This document shows positions 7,593 to 50,494 of a DNA stretch of 64,000 bases, one piece after another. A model generated the notes under the pieces. The model searched no databases and was not told where the DNA came from. It saw only the letters and a program-made list of their open reading frames with translations. The stretch covers positions 1,103 through 65,102 of the forward strand of contig CALXZO010000009.1 of the NCBI GenBank assembly GCA_944393265.1, read 5' to 3'. A program made the translations under genes and the position numbers. This stretch comes from an uncultured Clostridia bacterium. Its GTDB lineage: Bacteria; Bacillota; Clostridia; TANB77; UBA1234. How positions within the stretch are numbered: position 1 is the stretch's first letter; each line of letters begins with the position of its first letter.

Positions 7593-7703
7593 TTGCATTG
7601 AAAGCGGAAAGTATATGATATTAGAAATAATATAGTGACTTATAATCCGTTGTCAATTGTAGTGCTATTAAATATCCTAACTTAGAGAGGAGAGGGTCGA
7701 TAA

Positions 7704-7979
7704 GTGGAGGATATAAGAGTTGCGCTAGGAAATAGAATTAAGAAGTTGAGACAAGGATTAAAAATTAGTCAAGAAGCTTTAGCATACCGTGCGGACTTAG
7801 ATAGGACGTATATTGCGTCAATTGAAAAAGGAAGGAGAAATGTATCTATAGTAAATATCGAAAGAATCGCACTTGCTTTAAATTGTACTCTTTCAAGTTT
7901 TTTTGATGCAGACGAATTTAGAGAGCGTGTACCAGATGATTATATGAAAGTAGCAGAAGAAGATAAAACTTACAATTAA
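7704..7979 (+). CDS. XRE-family HTH transcriptional regulator, small (91 aa), paralog 1 of 3
   Basis: Cro/C1-type HTH (GNRIKKLRQGLKISQEALA ... DRTYIASIEKGRRNVSIVNIERIA); GTG start after a GAGAGGAGAGG RBS. Confidence 0.8.
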   Translation: MEDIRVALGNRIKKLRQGLKISQEALAYRADLDRTYIASIEKGRRNVSIVNIERIALALNCTLSSFFDADEFRERVPDDYMKVAEEDKTYN

Positions 7980-8063
7980 TGAATTAGGAAAATAATGTTG
8001 TAAAAGAAATAGGAATAATTGATGAAATAAATATTATTATGATGAGAAAGGGCTTTAATAGAT

Positions 8064-8348
8064 ATGGAAGACGTCAAAGTGTTGGTTGGAAATAGAATTA
8101 AATATCTACGAAAGAAGTCGAATCTTACTCAATATACACTAGCAGAAAAAATAGGATTTGATAGAACATATTTAGCAGGTGTTGAAAGTGGAAAGCGAAA
8201 TGTGTCAATACTTAATATTCAAAAAATTGCAAAAGTGCTTAAGTGTACAATAGCAGACTTTTTTGATTCGGATGAGTTTAAAATAAATACTCCAAACGAA
8301 TTTGCAAAAACAGTTGATAAAGTGGCTTTTTATAGGCGACTTAAGTAG
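8064..8348 (+). CDS. XRE-family HTH transcriptional regulator, small (94 aa), paralog 2 of 3
   Basis: same HTH architecture; ~50-60% identical to its neighbours. Confidence 0.8.
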   Translation: MEDVKVLVGNRIKYLRKKSNLTQYTLAEKIGFDRTYLAGVESGKRNVSILNIQKIAKVLKCTIADFFDSDEFKINTPNEFAKTVDKVAFYRRLK

Positions 8349-8462
8349 AGGTTAAGTGCAAATGAGGATAAGGAAGGAGGAGATTTTTTTATGAGCTAAC
8401 TGTGACTTATAATCCGTTGCCTTTTATTCTACTATTTAATATCCTAATGGCAGGAGGATGCC

Positions 8463-8747
8463 ATGGAAGATATTAGGATGTTAGTCGGTAAAAGGATAAA
8501 AAGTTTGCGTAAGCAAATTAATATAAGCCAAGAAAAGCTGGCTTTCGGAGCTAATATTGATAGAACGTACCTTGCATCTGTTGAAAATGGGAAAAGAAAT
8601 ATTTCAATAATAAATATAGAAAGGATAGCTCTCGCACTAGGTTATACTTTAGCAGATTTTTTTGATTCAGAAGAGTTTAAAATAAATTTGCCAGCGGATT
8701 ATTTGTTGGTAGCAGAAAAGTTTTTTGATGAGAAAAAGTATAAGTAA
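8463..8747 (+). CDS. XRE-family HTH transcriptional regulator, small (94 aa), paralog 3 of 3
   Basis: same HTH architecture; shares a conserved ~50-nt upstream leader with paralog 1. Confidence 0.8.
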   Translation: MEDIRMLVGKRIKSLRKQINISQEKLAFGANIDRTYLASVENGKRNISIINIERIALALGYTLADFFDSEEFKINLPADYLLVAEKFFDEKKYK

Positions 8748-8925
8748 TTGAAGCGTTAAAATTGAAAATATTTCTAAAACTAAAAACAATTAACAACAAA
8801 ACCCTCATTTGATTTAATGTTCAAGAGGGTTTTATTATTGCTATATATTATCACAGACGTATTTTGAAATGAAATTTCAATAGCTGTGTTTTTATGTTAA
8901 AATATTTTCATAGGAGTGATTAAAA

Positions 8926-9541: not shown

Positions 9542-9823
9542 GTGAATGAAATGAGTCCACTGTCTATTGTAGAGAATGGATTAGAATGGATATTTAATAC
9601 AATTCCAGTAGATATATGGATATGGGGAAATGTTGCAGTAATGGCAATATTGTGGTTTGCAAAGGAAAAAATCACGTTTGCCTTAACTGTAGAGCTCATG
9701 TTTGTTCTTTTGTGGGGGACATGCAAGTTTGCTTGTTTTGTCCTACCACTTTGGCTAGAGTGGGTGGTAACGGTAGTGGTCGTTATCACGCTAATACGAC
9801 TATTTCGCCGGGGAGGTGCTTGA
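9542..9823 (+). CDS. hypothetical small membrane protein (93 aa)
   Basis: two hydrophobic segments; overlaps a second Cys-rich ORF (9616-9867) in another frame; ends with an in-frame CGG codon; weak. Confidence 0.3.
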   Translation: MNEMSPLSIVENGLEWIFNTIPVDIWIWGNVAVMAILWFAKEKITFALTVELMFVLLWGTCKFACFVLPLWLEWVVTVVVVITLIRLFRRGGA

Positions 9824-9832
9824 AAAAGCATC

Positions 9833-9990
9833 TCTTTTTATTGTATAGGAAAGTAATCAAAAAATAACAAATTATGTTACCAAATGCTTCCCGTATGAGA
9901 CAACAAAAATTTCATATTTAAAGTCGAGCTTTGCTCGACTTTAAAGAATCAAAAATCTCTGATTTTTTAGATTTTCATTTTTGTTCTTTA
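9833..9990. repeat. ~155-bp structured dispersed repeat, copy A (three consecutive hairpins)
   Basis: near-identical to 12001-12154, 17729-17882 and 32057-32212; internal palindromes ggaaagta...tactttcc, aagtcgagctttgctcgactt, gaaaatcaaaaatc...gattttttagattttc. Confidence 0.8.
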
Positions 9991-10164
9991 ATAGAAAATC
10001 ATCATTGTGAGAAGTGAATATTTGAAAAAACTTGAATTATGCAAAATTAAGTGATATAATATATACGTAGTTTATTGTAAGTGGAGGTGTATTGCAACTG
10101 ATTAGTATGCAGATGTGAACTGGGACTAGAACGGAATGATAGAAAAGTGAAAGGGGAAACACAC

Positions 10165-10731
10165 ATGAAACAGAAGAGAGCGGATTTCATCCGAATGATC
10201 CGCATCGAAAAGCTCTCGATAGAGGAGATTGCCAAGGTTTTGGGCGTCACTCCTTTGACCGTGCGGCGAAACATCCGCAGTAGCTACATCCGAAAGGGAT
10301 GGGCAGAGACGCTACTGGCCGAGGCTAAGGCGAACGCCAAAGCCAAGAAAGTTGAGAAGACTGAGTTGGTGTACTTGCTCGACACCTCTTATCTCCTTAA
10401 CAGGCCTGAGAGTTGTCTGAAGTTGGATGGACGACTGCTCATGCCACGTTTCTGCAGAAACGAGGTGGAACATCTCATTTCAGGAGGAACGGTCGAAAGA
10501 CCGGACCAGGTGAAGCAAGTCCTCGAGATGGCAGATCTCATCTATATTGAGGATTTGCCCCGGGTGGAACTGCCACCCGAAATGGGATTTTTAAAGAGCA
10601 GGAACATCATGTTCCTAAGGTACGCAAGTGCTTTGAGCGCTAGTACCGATAACCTTCGGATCTGCGTGAAGAGCTACGAGCTGCAGAAGCTCTTAGAACT
10701 AAGCCGGATTCACGACGTCGCCTCTCGTTGA
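10165..10731 (+). CDS. GC-rich foreign ORF: HTH plus PIN-like domain protein (putative nuclease/toxin-like)
   Basis: ~50% GC against ~29% background; AAAGGGGA RBS before the ATG at 10165 (ORF track starts 10147); N-terminal HTH (LSIEEIAKVLGVTPLTVRR) and a PIN-like LLDTSYLL ... RNEVEHL segment; contains 4 in-frame CGG Arg codons. Confidence 0.5.
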   Translation: MKQKRADFIRMIRIEKLSIEEIAKVLGVTPLTVRRNIRSSYIRKGWAETLLAEAKANAKAKKVEKTELVYLLDTSYLLNRPESCLKLDGRLLMPRFCRNEVEHLISGGTVERPDQVKQVLEMADLIYIEDLPRVELPPEMGFLKSRNIMFLRYASALSASTDNLRICVKSYELQKLLELSRIHDVASR

Positions 10732-10746
10732 GAGGCGACTTTTTTT
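10717..10746 (+). terminator. rho-independent terminator of the GC-rich ORF
   Basis: gtcgcctctcgttgagaggcgac hairpin overlapping the stop codon, followed by ttttttt. Confidence 0.7.
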
Positions 10747-10870
10747 GTGCAACAATGAAATTTTTAGTGGACGTTCCAAAAGGTTCCACATTAGGATTTT
10801 CCTACCTTGCATATTATTAATATTTGTAATATAATAAATTGGCTAAATTGTTAAAAAGGTGGATGTAAAT

Positions 10871-11935: not shown

Positions 11936-12000
11936 AACTACCAAAGAATAGGAGAAAATATTTTAAATTGTGCGGTTCCAAGGTTAGCTAGGAATCGCTT

Positions 12001-12154
12001 TTTTATTTCATAGGAAAGTAATCAAAAATTAACGAATTATGTTACTAAATACTTTCCGTATGAAACAACAAAAATTCCATATTTAAAGTCTAGCTTTGCT
12101 CGACATATGAAAATCAAAAATCTTTGATTTTTTAGATTTTCATTTTTGTTCTTG
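12001..12154. repeat. ~155-bp structured dispersed repeat, copy B
   Basis: ttttatttcataggaaagtaatcaaaaattaacgaattatgttactaaatactttccgtatgaaacaac...gattttttagattttcatttttgttc. Confidence 0.8.
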
Positions 12155-12279
12155 AGGGGTTGTCGCTTGAATTGAATCTTATATATGTTCTTTTAGTATG
12201 CAGATGGAGCATTAATAGCGGATAAGAAAATCATTGATTTTATAAGGAAAAACCAAGTTAAATTTTGTATCCGCAAGCG

Positions 12280-17281: not shown

Positions 17282-17289
17282 GGGGTTTT

Positions 17290-17335
17290 ATTTTTATTTC
17301 ATACGGAAAGTATTTAATAACATAATACGCTAATT
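17290..17335. repeat. partial collapsed copy (E) of the ~155-bp repeat
   Basis: tttatttcatacggaaagtatttaataacataat matches the left arm and inner inverted segment of the first hairpin of the family. Confidence 0.4.
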
Positions 17336-17362
17336 GGTAAGTATCTTCTTATGAAATAAAAA

Positions 17363-17383
17363 ACTCCCGAAAAATTCGGGAGT
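17363..17383 (-). terminator. hairpin terminator serving the minus-strand GC-rich ORF
   Basis: actcccgaaaaattcgggagt perfect stem; the U-run is on the minus strand (aaaaaa at 17357-17362 on plus). Confidence 0.55.
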
Positions 17384-17629: not shown

Positions 17630-17728
17630 TGAGGTCCCTCCTTTTTTGTTTGTTTAGCATTAACATTATATCACGACATTTGTATATAAGCAAGCAAAAA
17701 GATAGGCAAGAATTAAGGATAATGCTGT

Positions 17729-17882
17729 TTTTTATTTCATAGGAAAGTAATCAAAAATTAATGAATTATGTTACCAAATACTTCCCGTATGAAACAACAA
17801 AAATTTCATATTTAAAGTCGAGCTTTGCTCGACATATGAAAATCAAAAATCTTTGATTTTTTAGATTTTCATTTTTGTTCTC
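17729..17882. repeat. ~155-bp structured dispersed repeat, copy C
   Basis: near-identical to copies A, B and D. Confidence 0.8.
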
Positions 17883-42677: not shown

Positions 42678-43919
42678 ATGAATTTTGATGAAGCAAAATT
42701 TATCTTAGAAAAATATGGGCAAACTCATATTTTAAAGTCATACGAAAGATTAAATAGTGAAGATAAGGAAAAGTTATTAAATCAGATTTCAAAAACTGAT
42801 TTTGAAAAAATTAGTGAGCTTTATGAAAATGCTAAAAAACCGGCGGAAACAGAAAGCGCAGTTATAGAACCTGCTAAATATGTTGATTCAGCTAAATTAT
42901 CAGAAGAAGAAAAAGCAGAATATATAAGATTAGGTGAAGAGGCAATAAAAAGCGGAAAACTTGCTGTTGTTACAATGGCAGGTGGACAAGGAACAAGACT
43001 TGGTCATAGTGGTCCAAAAGGAACGTTTGATATTGGACTTGACTCACATAAGAGCATTTTTGAAATTCAAAATGATATTTTAAAAGAAGCAAATGAAAAG
43101 TATGGAGTTACTATTCCATGGTATATTATGACTAGTAAAGAAAATGATTCGGATACTAAAAAGTTTTTTGAAGAAAAAAATTATTTTGGATATCCAAAGA
43201 AAGAGGCGAATTTCTTCTTTAAGCAAGGTGAATTACCTATGATTGATGAAGAAGGAAAACTTATTATTAATGAGAATGGATTTATTAAAGAAGCTGCGGA
43301 TGGCCACGGAGGAGTGTTTGAAGCTATGGCAGCAAACGGTGTTTTAGATGACATGAGAAAAAGAAATATTGAATGGGTATTTATTGCTGCGGTGGATAAT
43401 GTTTTAGTAAAGATGGCGGATCCATTATTTATAGGATATGCTATAAAAAATAATTTTAAAGTTGCTTCAAAAACAATTCCAAAGAAAAGCCCGTCTGAAA
43501 GAGTCGGCGTTTTTTGCAAAAAGAATGGAAGACCTTATGTAATAGAATATACGGAAATTTCAGAAGAGCAAGCAAATGCTAGAGATGAGAATGGAGAACT
43601 TCTATATGGTGAGGGGCACGTTTTATTAAATTTGTTTAACATAGAGGCGTTAGAAGAAGTTGAAAAATATAAATTGCCATATCATACGGCGCATAAGAAA
43701 TCTAGTTATATGAATGAAGATGGGGAAATAGTTCAACCAGAAAAACCTAATGCATATAAATTTGAAACGTTTTTGTTTGACGCTTTTGCCAAGATGCCGG
43801 AAATAGGTTTGATTAGAGGAAAAAGAGAAGTCGATTTTTCGGTAGTAAAAAATGCTGAGGGAGATGACTCACCAGAAACAGCTAAGAGGGACTATATAAA
43901 ATTTCACAATCAGGGATAA
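42678..43919 (+). CDS. UDPGP-family nucleotide-sugar pyrophosphorylase (UDP-GlcNAc/UDP-sugar pyrophosphorylase-like)
   Basis: MAGGQGTRLG nucleotide-binding motif and overall UAP1-like architecture; 413 aa. Confidence 0.75.
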   Translation: MNFDEAKFILEKYGQTHILKSYERLNSEDKEKLLNQISKTDFEKISELYENAKKPAETESAVIEPAKYVDSAKLSEEEKAEYIRLGEEAIKSGKLAVVTMAGGQGTRLGHSGPKGTFDIGLDSHKSIFEIQNDILKEANEKYGVTIPWYIMTSKENDSDTKKFFEEKNYFGYPKKEANFFFKQGELPMIDEEGKLIINENGFIKEAADGHGGVFEAMAANGVLDDMRKRNIEWVFIAAVDNVLVKMADPLFIGYAIKNNFKVASKTIPKKSPSERVGVFCKKNGRPYVIEYTEISEEQANARDENGELLYGEGHVLLNLFNIEALEEVEKYKLPYHTAHKKSSYMNEDGEIVQPEKPNAYKFETFLFDAFAKMPEIGLIRGKREVDFSVVKNAEGDDSPETAKRDYIKFHNQG

Positions 43920-49876: not shown

Positions 49877-50494
49877 ATGCACATAAAAAACAAAATAATA
49901 ATTGGTACACTTATCATGATGACATTTTGCACATGCGTTATGGCTGTGACATTTACGGATCTTTTAGAAGAACATTGGGCGTATCAATATGTAACTACTT
50001 TATCGGATAATAATATAATTAATGGTTATCCGGATGGAACGTATAAGCCAGAAGGCACTATATCTAGAGCAGAATTTTTAAAATTGGTAATAGCAGCGTC
50101 TATGCCAAAAGAGGTAGATATATCAGAAGTGCCACCTGCATTAGAGCACTGGGCTGGACAATATTTATTTGTAGCACAAACTTATGGTATCGTTGACGCC
50201 GGTAGCATGGATTTGACAAATATTGATGAGCCAATAACAAGAATGGAGATGGCCTTGATTATATCAAAAACGGATGTAATGCTTAGAAATAAAAAAATAA
50301 ATAGTAATACAAATGTTACATTTAATGATTATGATACAATGAATTCTGAAGAGATAAAGTGGTTAACTCATGCTGTTGGAATGAATTATATAAACGGTTA
50401 TCCGGACAACACTTTTAAACCGGATGGAAATATGACAAGAGCTGAAGCGGCTGCTGTAATCTATAGATATCAAGGAATAGAAGTAAGCCAATAA
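49877..50494 (+). CDS. SLH-domain protein (two S-layer homology repeats)
   Basis: signal peptide, then FTDLLEEHWAYQYVTTL ... INGYPDGTYKPEGTISRAEFLKLV and a second INGYPDNTFKPDGNMTRAEAAAVIYRY SLH repeat. Confidence 0.75.
   Translation: MHIKNKIIIGTLIMMTFCTCVMAVTFTDLLEEHWAYQYVTTLSDNNIINGYPDGTYKPEGTISRAEFLKLVIAASMPKEVDISEVPPALEHWAGQYLFVAQTYGIVDAGSMDLTNIDEPITRMEMALIISKTDVMLRNKKINSNTNVTFNDYDTMNSEEIKWLTHAVGMNYINGYPDNTFKPDGNMTRAEAAAVIYRYQGIEVSQ

Follow-up and report, generated by a model that had tools for sequence, protein, structure and literature searches.

The window analysed here is a stretch of 64,000 nucleotides (nt) of contig CALXZO010000009.1 from an uncultured Clostridia bacterium, and the element in question is one gene within it, at 10165..10731 on the forward (+) strand, which encodes a helix-turn-helix (HTH) segment followed by a PIN-like domain and which we call the HTH-PIN gene. 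A first-pass annotation of the sequence had marked this place as an islet of high guanine-plus-cytosine (GC) content and had read it as foreign cargo inserted next to a repeat. The jump in composition is real: in a windowed GC plot, 200-nt windows at 10100-10700 lie between 0.475 and 0.53 and both flanks between 0.25 and 0.33, and the highest 400-nt GC of the entire window (0.5275, against a mean of 0.325 with a standard deviation (sd) of 0.045) falls on this segment. It holds a single intact open reading frame (ORF) with a GC of 0.51, which encodes 188 amino acids (aa) and not the 189 given at first. Its composition is codon-periodic, with GC values of 0.53, 0.36 and 0.64 at the first, second and third codon positions (GC1, GC2 and GC3), compared with a mean GC3 of 0.244 (sd 0.084) for 43 long ORFs of the window, a reference set that includes the HTH-PIN gene itself and a second GC-rich gene, with an HD domain, to which we return below. 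Codon choice is equally unlike that of the host: the four CGG codons noted at first are indeed present, a codon that makes up 1% of host Arg codons, and CTC supplies 30% of Leu codons (host, 2%), ATC 62% of Ile codons (8%) and AAG 80% of Lys codons (28%).

By its predicted signals, this segment is a self-contained monocistronic gene made up of promoter, leader, ORF and intrinsic terminator. The sigma-A-type promoter at 10032..10060 (+), TTGAAT and TATAAT separated by 17 nt with a TG before the -10 element, matches the consensus at 10 of 12 positions; it is AT-rich and host-like, and an ATTATG motif lies in or beside it. With the transcription start site (TSS) placed from the sequence, the predicted 5' leader at 10067..10164 (+) would be about 97 nt long with a GC of 0.39. 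It carries two sites resembling a Shine-Dalgarno (SD) sequence: a distal one, TGGAGGTGT at 10082-10090 (+), 83 nt before the ATG with a calculated anti-SD duplex of -13.1 kcal/mol, and the true ribosome-binding site (RBS), GAAAGGGGA at 10149-10157 (+), 16 nt before the ATG with a duplex of -10.6 kcal/mol. At the other end lies an intrinsic terminator at 10717..10749 (+), GTCGCCTCTC-GTT-GAGAGGCGAC followed by a T-run, whose hairpin at 10717-10739 has 10 pairs, seven of them G-C, and encloses the TGA stop codon at 10729-10731; the gene thus has both the RBS of its own and the hairpin overlapping the stop that the first-pass annotation had described. The rise in GC begins within about 15 nt of the predicted TSS and stops at the terminator, with a GC of 0.21 in the promoter and flanks. 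A database protein of 190 aa (P0004, from L025:2221-2793) might suggest a read-through allele, but its DNA is identical to that of the window and both TGA codons are read as Trp, for which reason we take it to be a gene-calling artefact arising from a code in which TGA encodes Trp.

Within the protein, residues 2-61 make up the HTH with a helical extension and residues 69-180 a PIN_4-like alpha/beta domain. Residues 5-37 match HTH models, among them Sigma70_r4_2 (25.8 bits, cut-off 25.7). In the Pfam scan the window protein itself matched no PIN model at E<=1; PIN_4 (PF13638) was matched at that level by seven of the 16 family members, and one homologue, P0015, passes the PIN_4 gathering score (25.5 bits against 21.9, over model positions 3-124 of 132). 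An AlphaFold2 model built from an alignment of these 16 sequences (predicted local distance difference test score 87.9) has four N-terminal helices followed by a beta-alpha domain at 69-180, and the top matches to it in a Foldseek search of the PDB are PIN domains: 3ix7, PAE2754, Nmd4, the Rrp44 PIN, SMG6 and AF0591. Their probabilities are 0.9-1.0, mostly 0.97-1.0, with target-normalised TM-scores of up to 0.62 and E values of only 5.6e-3 or weaker. Sequence searches of the PDB gave only weak matches, to the Nmd4 PIN and to HTH repeats. In the predicted model, then, the domain is PIN-like in fold, and the HTH-plus-PIN arrangement proposed from the bare sequence has held up. Candidate identities as an IS607-like serine recombinase, as Rae1/YacP and as a small terminase were dropped, as neither Pfam nor the fold search supported them.

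Whether the domain would cut nucleic acid in the usual way is another matter. The acid at the N terminus of helix 4 is nearly invariant in the PIN-like superfamily (PMC5499597), and we used the description in that paper as the yardstick for the active site, mapping residues from predicted secondary structure without superposition. An acid is present after strand 1 (69-72) at D73, a position that is D or E across the family, and E100, the acid after strand 2, is invariant in alignment A2 and not in alignment A1. The helix at 145-160, which would be helix 4, starts K144-S145-R146-N147, with K144 and R146, both invariant in A2, occupying the usual position of the acid. E129/D130 in the preceding loop might substitute for it, with inconsistent alignment there, and towards the end of strand 4 there is an invariant acid, E172, two residues past the usual position (S170). 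Because conserved K144/R146 replace the helix-4 acid, canonical four-acid Mg2+ catalysis by this protein is doubtful, and the domain as modelled may be non-catalytic or non-canonical. The protein is best described as an HTH fused to a degenerate PIN_4 domain, uncharacterised and restricted to uncultured gut Clostridia.

The family is tiny. A word-indexed search of 5.8 billion clusters recovered the window protein alone, and an exhaustive HMMER scan of 1.84 billion representatives gave 14 matches at E<=1e-3, about 10 of which are full-length relatives of 187-230 aa with 29-38% identity. Clustered at 50% identity, the family amounts to about 10 clusters among 1.8 billion representatives. With a second subgroup recovered by a profile search, it comes to the 16 proteins used above. 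The homologues lie among housekeeping genes on the chromosomes of other AT-rich uncultured Clostridia. A search for anti-phage defence systems with PADLOC gave no match for the HTH-PIN protein or for the small membrane protein encoded upstream of it, and only a weak HTH match (E 0.024) for P0007, the homologue in a related genome discussed below.

The high GC is shared by relatives. We compared gene and flank GC at 11 loci, computing the row for the window on L001, the same locus in another assembly of the species. In decreasing order of enrichment at the top of the range, gene GC, GC3 and flank GC are.51,.64 and.33 for the window;.47,.47 and.29 for L127;.49,.61 and.32 for L028;.45,.52 and.29 for L045;.44,.51 and.31 for L040;.45,.50 and.33 for L038; and.40,.44 and.30 for L046. 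The remaining loci have less GC-rich copies: L041 (.37,.31,.28), L032 (.32,.27,.245), L036 (.32,.24,.244) and L033 (.29,.18,.26). Each of the 11 genes exceeds its flanks in GC, the difference reaching 18 points, and all the hosts are AT-rich. The first-pass annotation had held that host-like codon usage in orthologues from AT-rich genomes would speak against a foreign islet; AT-rich genomes do carry the gene, and the copy in L033 is host-like (GC3 0.18), whereas others are GC-rich.

Sequence divergence bears directly on how this enrichment is to be read. In a codon alignment of five homologues, identity at four-fold degenerate sites in conserved-amino-acid columns is 0.26, against 0.25 expected from composition. 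Synonymous sites are thus saturated, and the GC-richness is therefore no un-ameliorated remnant of one ancestral transfer. To judge from the alignment, either each lineage has recently received divergent alleles from an unseen GC-rich pool or the high GC is being actively kept up. Between genomes whose compared flanking proteins are 57-78% identical, the HTH-PIN protein shows an identity of 26-34%, and on these sequences the gene evolves about twice as fast as its neighbours. GC-richness is, in our reading, a family trait at equilibrium in each lineage.

The transcript signals recur along with the gene. Homologues are stand-alone units with a sigma-A-type promoter, and all have a strong hairpin directly after the stop codon. 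In seven homologous upstream regions TTGA and TATAAT are invariant and ATTATG(T) recurs at or near the -35 element; promoters with this motif are found in the window (10032-10060) and in L028, L040, L046, L041, L038, L045, L127 and L033. The sequence ACATTATGT is palindromic. In one subgroup the motif lies immediately upstream of the -35 element (ATTATGTTGACT), and in the other just downstream of it, in the spacer (TTGAnAnATTATGTAAAC), so ATTATG(T) could be an operator shifted by about one helical turn. Six loci (the window, L028, L038, L040, L046 and L041) have leaders of 97-127 nt with a strong distal SD-like site at a constant distance from the -10 hexamer, 27-30 nt downstream of it. The site then stands 83-113 nt before the ATG, and its anti-SD duplexes have energies of -9.8 to -13.1 kcal/mol. 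This site is as strong as the true RBS or stronger in four loci and weaker in L040, while in L046 the RBS falls below the threshold of -8 kcal/mol that we set for the duplex. In the homologous leaders we found no conserved upstream ORF or leader peptide behind the distal site.

The coding regions are also more folded than their codons demand. We expressed this as a z score, comparing the stability of the coding region with that of synonymous-codon shuffles that preserve both protein and codon usage. In 10 family members the sense-strand values are -5.1, -4.1, -5.3, -1.6, -3.8, -5.2, -1.8, -1.4, -4.4 and -4.0, that is, -3.8 or lower in seven, and the sense strand scores below the antisense strand in eight. 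The HTH-PIN ORF of the window itself ranges from -5.1 to -6.6 across runs. In the run that gave -6.6 it was the extreme, 32 other genes of the window having a mean of -0.59 (sd 1.46, minimum -4.3); 33 E. coli genes of similar GC have a mean of -0.97 (sd 1.45, minimum -3.5). An excess of folding is seen in two AT-rich members as well, L032 and L033, so the foldedness is no simple consequence of GC. The folding excess is significant for the family and not unprecedented for a single gene.

Synteny gives the decisive evidence against an insertion beside the repeat. In a related genome P0007 sits in the order small membrane ORF of 90 aa, P0007, GNAT, prfA, L7Ae, rpsL, rpsG and fusA, and the proteins around it are close to those of the window (prfA 88%, rpsL 93% and fusA 90% identical). 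The homologue is found at this syntenic site in L028-L031, where the copy is also GC-rich (0.49 against 0.32 in the flank). The first-pass annotation had suggested a comparison with related genomes to see whether the segment is an insertion or deletion relative to the repeat; in the related genome a homologue fills the same slot. With the exception of L027, every same-species contig long enough to show the site has the gene in the position that it holds in the window, with 0-1 mismatches; these contigs are about 99.9% identical, which makes polymorphism within the species uninformative on selection. We found no integrase or transposase among the genes called within 10 kb in L001, and at the HTH-PIN locus no tRNA target and no signature of flanking duplication, the flanking repeats belonging to a dispersed family. 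DNA and protein searches returned no phage, plasmid or IMG/VR viral-contig relative, and no GC-rich donor appeared among 15 billion proteins or in the phage and plasmid sets.

The repeat that had suggested an insertion site also looks different once its other copies are considered. The pair first described is real: copy A at 9835-9988 (+), between the upstream membrane-protein ORF and the HTH-PIN promoter and hence outside the gene unit, and copy B at 12000-12153 (+) are both 154 nt long and 90% identical. They are not a pair, however, but members of a dispersed family with at least four full copies in the window, all on the + strand and 90-97% identical, the others being copy C at 17728-17881 (+), at tuf/plsX, and copy D at 32057-32211 (+); a partial inverted copy lies at 17288-17363. 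The copies are intergenic, with sharp ends and unrelated flanks, and the predicted fold, of two domains, encloses two hairpins in a long closing stem (ACAACAAAAAT/ATTTTTGTTCT). There is no Rfam match to the repeat, which could be a MITE-like (miniature inverted-repeat transposable) element or a small-RNA gene family. The spacer sequence said to be shared after copies A and B is an exact 14-mer, TTAGTATGCAGATG, at 10102-10115 and 12193-12206, and it was not found after copies C and D. Its first occurrence lies inside the predicted HTH-PIN leader, and a similar TAGTATGC stands in the leader of L038; the second lies 40 nt after copy B, upstream of the L7Ae-rpsL promoter. The spacer between the upstream ORF and the gene is 341 nt in the window, of which 154 nt are the repeat, and 182 nt in L030, where there is no repeat. 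Because the L030 spacer lacks it, it is the repeat that came to lie next to the gene and not the reverse; by its distribution it is an unrelated dispersed element. On ERZ28614393 scaffold_13935 (L006/L024), the islet and prfA are followed by a repeat copy that differs from copy B at three positions, and past it mnmA-like, LOG-like and SLH genes stand in place of L7Ae-rpsL, a junction that could plausibly stem from recombination between repeat copies or from assembly collapse at them.

Taken together, these observations lead us to favour, with a probability of roughly 0.55, a resident and fast-evolving monocistronic HTH-PIN_4-like gene whose GC-rich, folded transcript is maintained by selection, as opposed to a recent insert. 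The gene would have been inherited with its neighbourhood in a clade of uncultured, AT-rich, spore-forming gut Clostridia, and its GC-richness would be maintained in each lineage by selection on the transcript, to which the over-folded coding region, the conserved 5' SD-like site and the strong 3' hairpin point. These three features, the site at the 5' end, the heavily paired GC-rich body and the hairpin at the 3' end, would make for a long-lived, nuclease-resistant mRNA. Its translation would probably be slow because of its many rare codons. As for the product, the HTH most likely binds DNA, with autoregulation at the conserved ATTATG promoter motif a possibility, and the PIN-like domain would bind or cut nucleic acid. 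That selection acts on the mRNA, that the leader site stabilises it and that the protein has such an activity is what we infer from the sequences.

Several observations weigh against selection on the transcript. A lift of 40 points in GC3 by selection at synonymous sites would be unusual. Two GC-rich members, L045 and L127, have short leaders without a distal SD-like site, z is only -1.4 to -1.8 in three family members, and a folding excess is not unique to this family, as one host gene reaches -4.3 and one E. coli gene -3.5. A specific conserved RNA fold was tried and rejected (structure conservation index 0.08 in a codon alignment of five homologues), so that only general foldedness can be claimed. 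Then there is the exceptional L027, a short contig (Logan SRR14620901) whose prfA is 100% identical in DNA and runs downstream into repeat B in the same way; it lacks the islet, and the 242 nt before the prfA start (within L027:1-244) are unrelated to anything in the window. L027 may represent an islet-free arrangement or a chimeric contig. It is also possible that the gene is repeatedly replaced by divergent alleles from an unsampled pool.

This last possibility, developed in full, is the main rival: the gene would be of a selfish or conflict type (a fused toxin-antitoxin, for instance, or a defence singleton) and would be exchanged recurrently at a conserved slot by homologous recombination through its flanks, and composition and divergence would then mirror a gene pool and not mRNA selection. 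The low identity of the protein beside much better conserved neighbours fits such exchange, as do the singleton monocistronic cassette with its sharp compositional borders and the alternative junctions around the islet-prfA block in L027 and L006/L024. PIN domains are, moreover, common as toxins (PMC5499597). We nevertheless regard it as rather unlikely, given that the searches among 15 billion proteins and the phage and plasmid sets turned up no GC-rich donor, phage or plasmid copy, that all 11 contexts are AT-rich chromosomes, that there is neither a PADLOC match nor an adjacent antitoxin gene, that promoter and leader are conserved together with the gene and that the population of this species is monomorphic. 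The older idea, in which the gene was recently acquired by horizontal transfer from a donor of about 50% GC at an insertion site marked by the 155-bp repeat, has the most familiar argument on its side, a sharp anomaly in GC and codon usage being a textbook mark of horizontal transfer. The gene does resemble horizontal GC islets in that the deviation is confined to one gene and lies far from the host in GC, GC3 and codon usage, and repeat copies do flank the islet-plus-prfA block, with the 14-nt identity after both. Unlike such islets, however, it shows the same deviation at the syntenic site of a related genome, where there is no repeat, and its synonymous sites are saturated between homologues; neither mobility genes called nearby, nor a flanking target duplication, nor donor-like sequence was found, and the repeat recurs at tuf/plsX and at 32057, with the 14-mer missing after these other copies. 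The foreign-cargo interpretation is thus largely refuted and, in our estimate, very improbable.

Two further explanations dispense with selection on this message or with the protein. GC-biased gene conversion or a local mutational bias would make GC and folding by-products with no RNA function; under the hypothesis that biased conversion operates in bacteria, recombination hotspots should show elevated GC3 combined with rapid divergence, which fits the gene, and the adjoining small membrane ORF is itself mildly GC-enriched (GC3 0.36-0.51 among its homologues). A neutral bias of this kind nonetheless strikes us as improbable, as the shift is very large (GC3 +0.40) and does not reach beyond a single transcription unit, whose promoter and flanks are AT-rich, as the folding excess is measured against composition- and codon-preserving shuffles, so that GC alone is insufficient, and as the AT-rich copies in L032 and L033 over-fold too. 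In AT-rich genomes, a GC-rich segment that folds strongly is often an RNA gene, and a z of about -5 to -7 would suit a structured non-coding RNA with a fortuitous ORF. That reading is scarcely credible in view of the codon-periodic composition (GC3 0.64, GC1 0.53, GC2 0.36), an ORF kept in at least 16 homologues with invariant residues, the HTH and PIN_4 profile matches and the confident AlphaFold2 model; the HTH-PIN segment also has no Rfam match, either at the gathering score or at E<=1, and the low structure conservation index points the same way.

Each of the closest known systems shares some features with the HTH-PIN gene and lacks others. Members of the PIN_4 (PF13638) branch, such as the N-terminal PIN of PhoH2/YlaK, the PIN of SMG6/Nmd4 and the YacL-type 3ix7, share its alpha/beta PIN fold and the motifs LxDTSxLL after strand 1 and xPxFCxxE(L/V) after strand 2. 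The window protein differs from them in carrying an N-terminal HTH in place of PhoH, TRAM or nonsense-mediated decay modules, in having K144/R146 at the position of the helix-4 acid and in the displaced acid after strand 4 (S170-x-E172). VapBC toxin-antitoxin systems likewise combine a small PIN-fold protein with a DNA-binding function, and the Foldseek matches include PAE2754 and PAE0151; in contrast, the HTH-PIN protein is one polypeptide from a monocistronic gene with no adjacent or overlapping antitoxin gene, its acidic tetrad is incomplete, and the ORF upstream encodes a membrane protein with a terminator of its own and is conserved in only three loci.

For the leader, the closest parallel is STAB-SD of Bacillus thuringiensis cry3Aa (Agaisse & Lereclus 1996), which the account cited here places at -125 and proposes to bind 30S subunits, blocking the access of ribonucleases (PMC12970973). 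Going by that account, the distal SD-like site of the HTH-PIN leader has the sequence features of a STAB-SD, a strong SD-like site that lies close to the transcript's 5' end, about 100 nt before the start codon, and has no conserved ORF behind it, and a role as a stabiliser is predicted by analogy. It would differ from the cry3Aa site in lying an estimated 14-17 nt from a predicted primary TSS and not at a processed 5' end, and in being paired with a GC-rich, over-folded coding region, which is not among the cry3Aa features that the cited account describes.

What is unusual here is the persistence of a GC-rich, over-folded state in a resident gene of AT-rich genomes. The anomaly is kept in diverged homologues across AT-rich relatives despite saturated synonymous sites, and island calling based on composition would therefore mislabel the gene. 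If selection on the transcript is indeed the cause, the gene would be a natural case in which most synonymous sites serve to build a stable mRNA, and it would open to experiment the question of how Firmicutes protect particular messages.

The second GC-rich gene of the window hints that this state may extend beyond a single gene. Its product is an HD-domain protein (PF01966, 38 bits); the gene lies at 28745-29275 on the reverse (-) strand, with a GC of 0.46, a GC3 of 0.51 and a folding z of -3.9, and it has a predicted promoter of its own (about 29333-29361), a hairpin in its short leader and a terminator at about 28695-28725; a tRNA gene adjoins it at 29469-29539. Of its four closest metagenomic relatives, three have a higher GC than their flanks (gene/flank.54/.39 in L047,.60/.46 in L050 and.46/.38 in L049). 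Because this gene shows the same syndrome, the phenomenon may be wider. A more general reading, which we advance only tentatively and judge to be less probable than not being so, is that AT-rich gut Clostridia keep a small class of stand-alone genes as GC-rich, hyper-folded mRNAs through long-term selection at synonymous sites, with the HTH-PIN and HD-domain genes as two examples. In such a class, the coding sequence would act jointly with hairpins at the 3' end and with stabilisers at the 5' end, either an SD-like site or a hairpin, to confer RNA persistence or immunity to RNases. The transcript might thereby outlast the decay of AU-rich mRNAs or periods when transcription is off, as in sporulation, dormancy or attack by an AU-directed RNase, which could possibly be the encoded PIN protein itself.

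The ORF upstream of the HTH-PIN gene, at 9551..9823 (+), encodes the small membrane protein of 90 aa already mentioned; it has a GC of 0.41 and a terminator-like hairpin at 9810-9837. In L028/L030 and in L038, too, the HTH-PIN gene is immediately preceded by a homologue of this small transmembrane ORF, which makes three genomes with the window. The proteins share the motifs IPxDxWIWG and LPxWL, and the one in the window has no Pfam match. The ORFs are mildly GC-enriched, with a GC of 0.41-0.44 and the GC3 range given above. Further shared neighbours connect the loci one to the next and favour a resident gene: GNAT genes in L028, L038 and L045, the last two of which also share ABC-transporter genes; Metallophos_2 in L046 as in the window, L040 having a longer Metallophos protein; HTH_3 in L038 as in the window; and proteins of 345 aa and 193 aa in both L041 and L046. 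A contig scan with the neighbouring Metallophos protein found relatives of 56-63% identity and no synteny to the islet.

Two ORFs of ordinary GC elsewhere in the window, at 49877-50494 (+) and 42678-43919 (+), have z scores of -4.3 and -3.5 over their first 552 nt. At about 7700-8750 (+), downstream of spo0A, lies a tandem array of three Xre-type HTH_3 paralogues (91-94 aa). Two of them were compared and have repeat blocks in common, at 74-90% DNA identity, and in L038 a homologue likewise stands ahead of the module.

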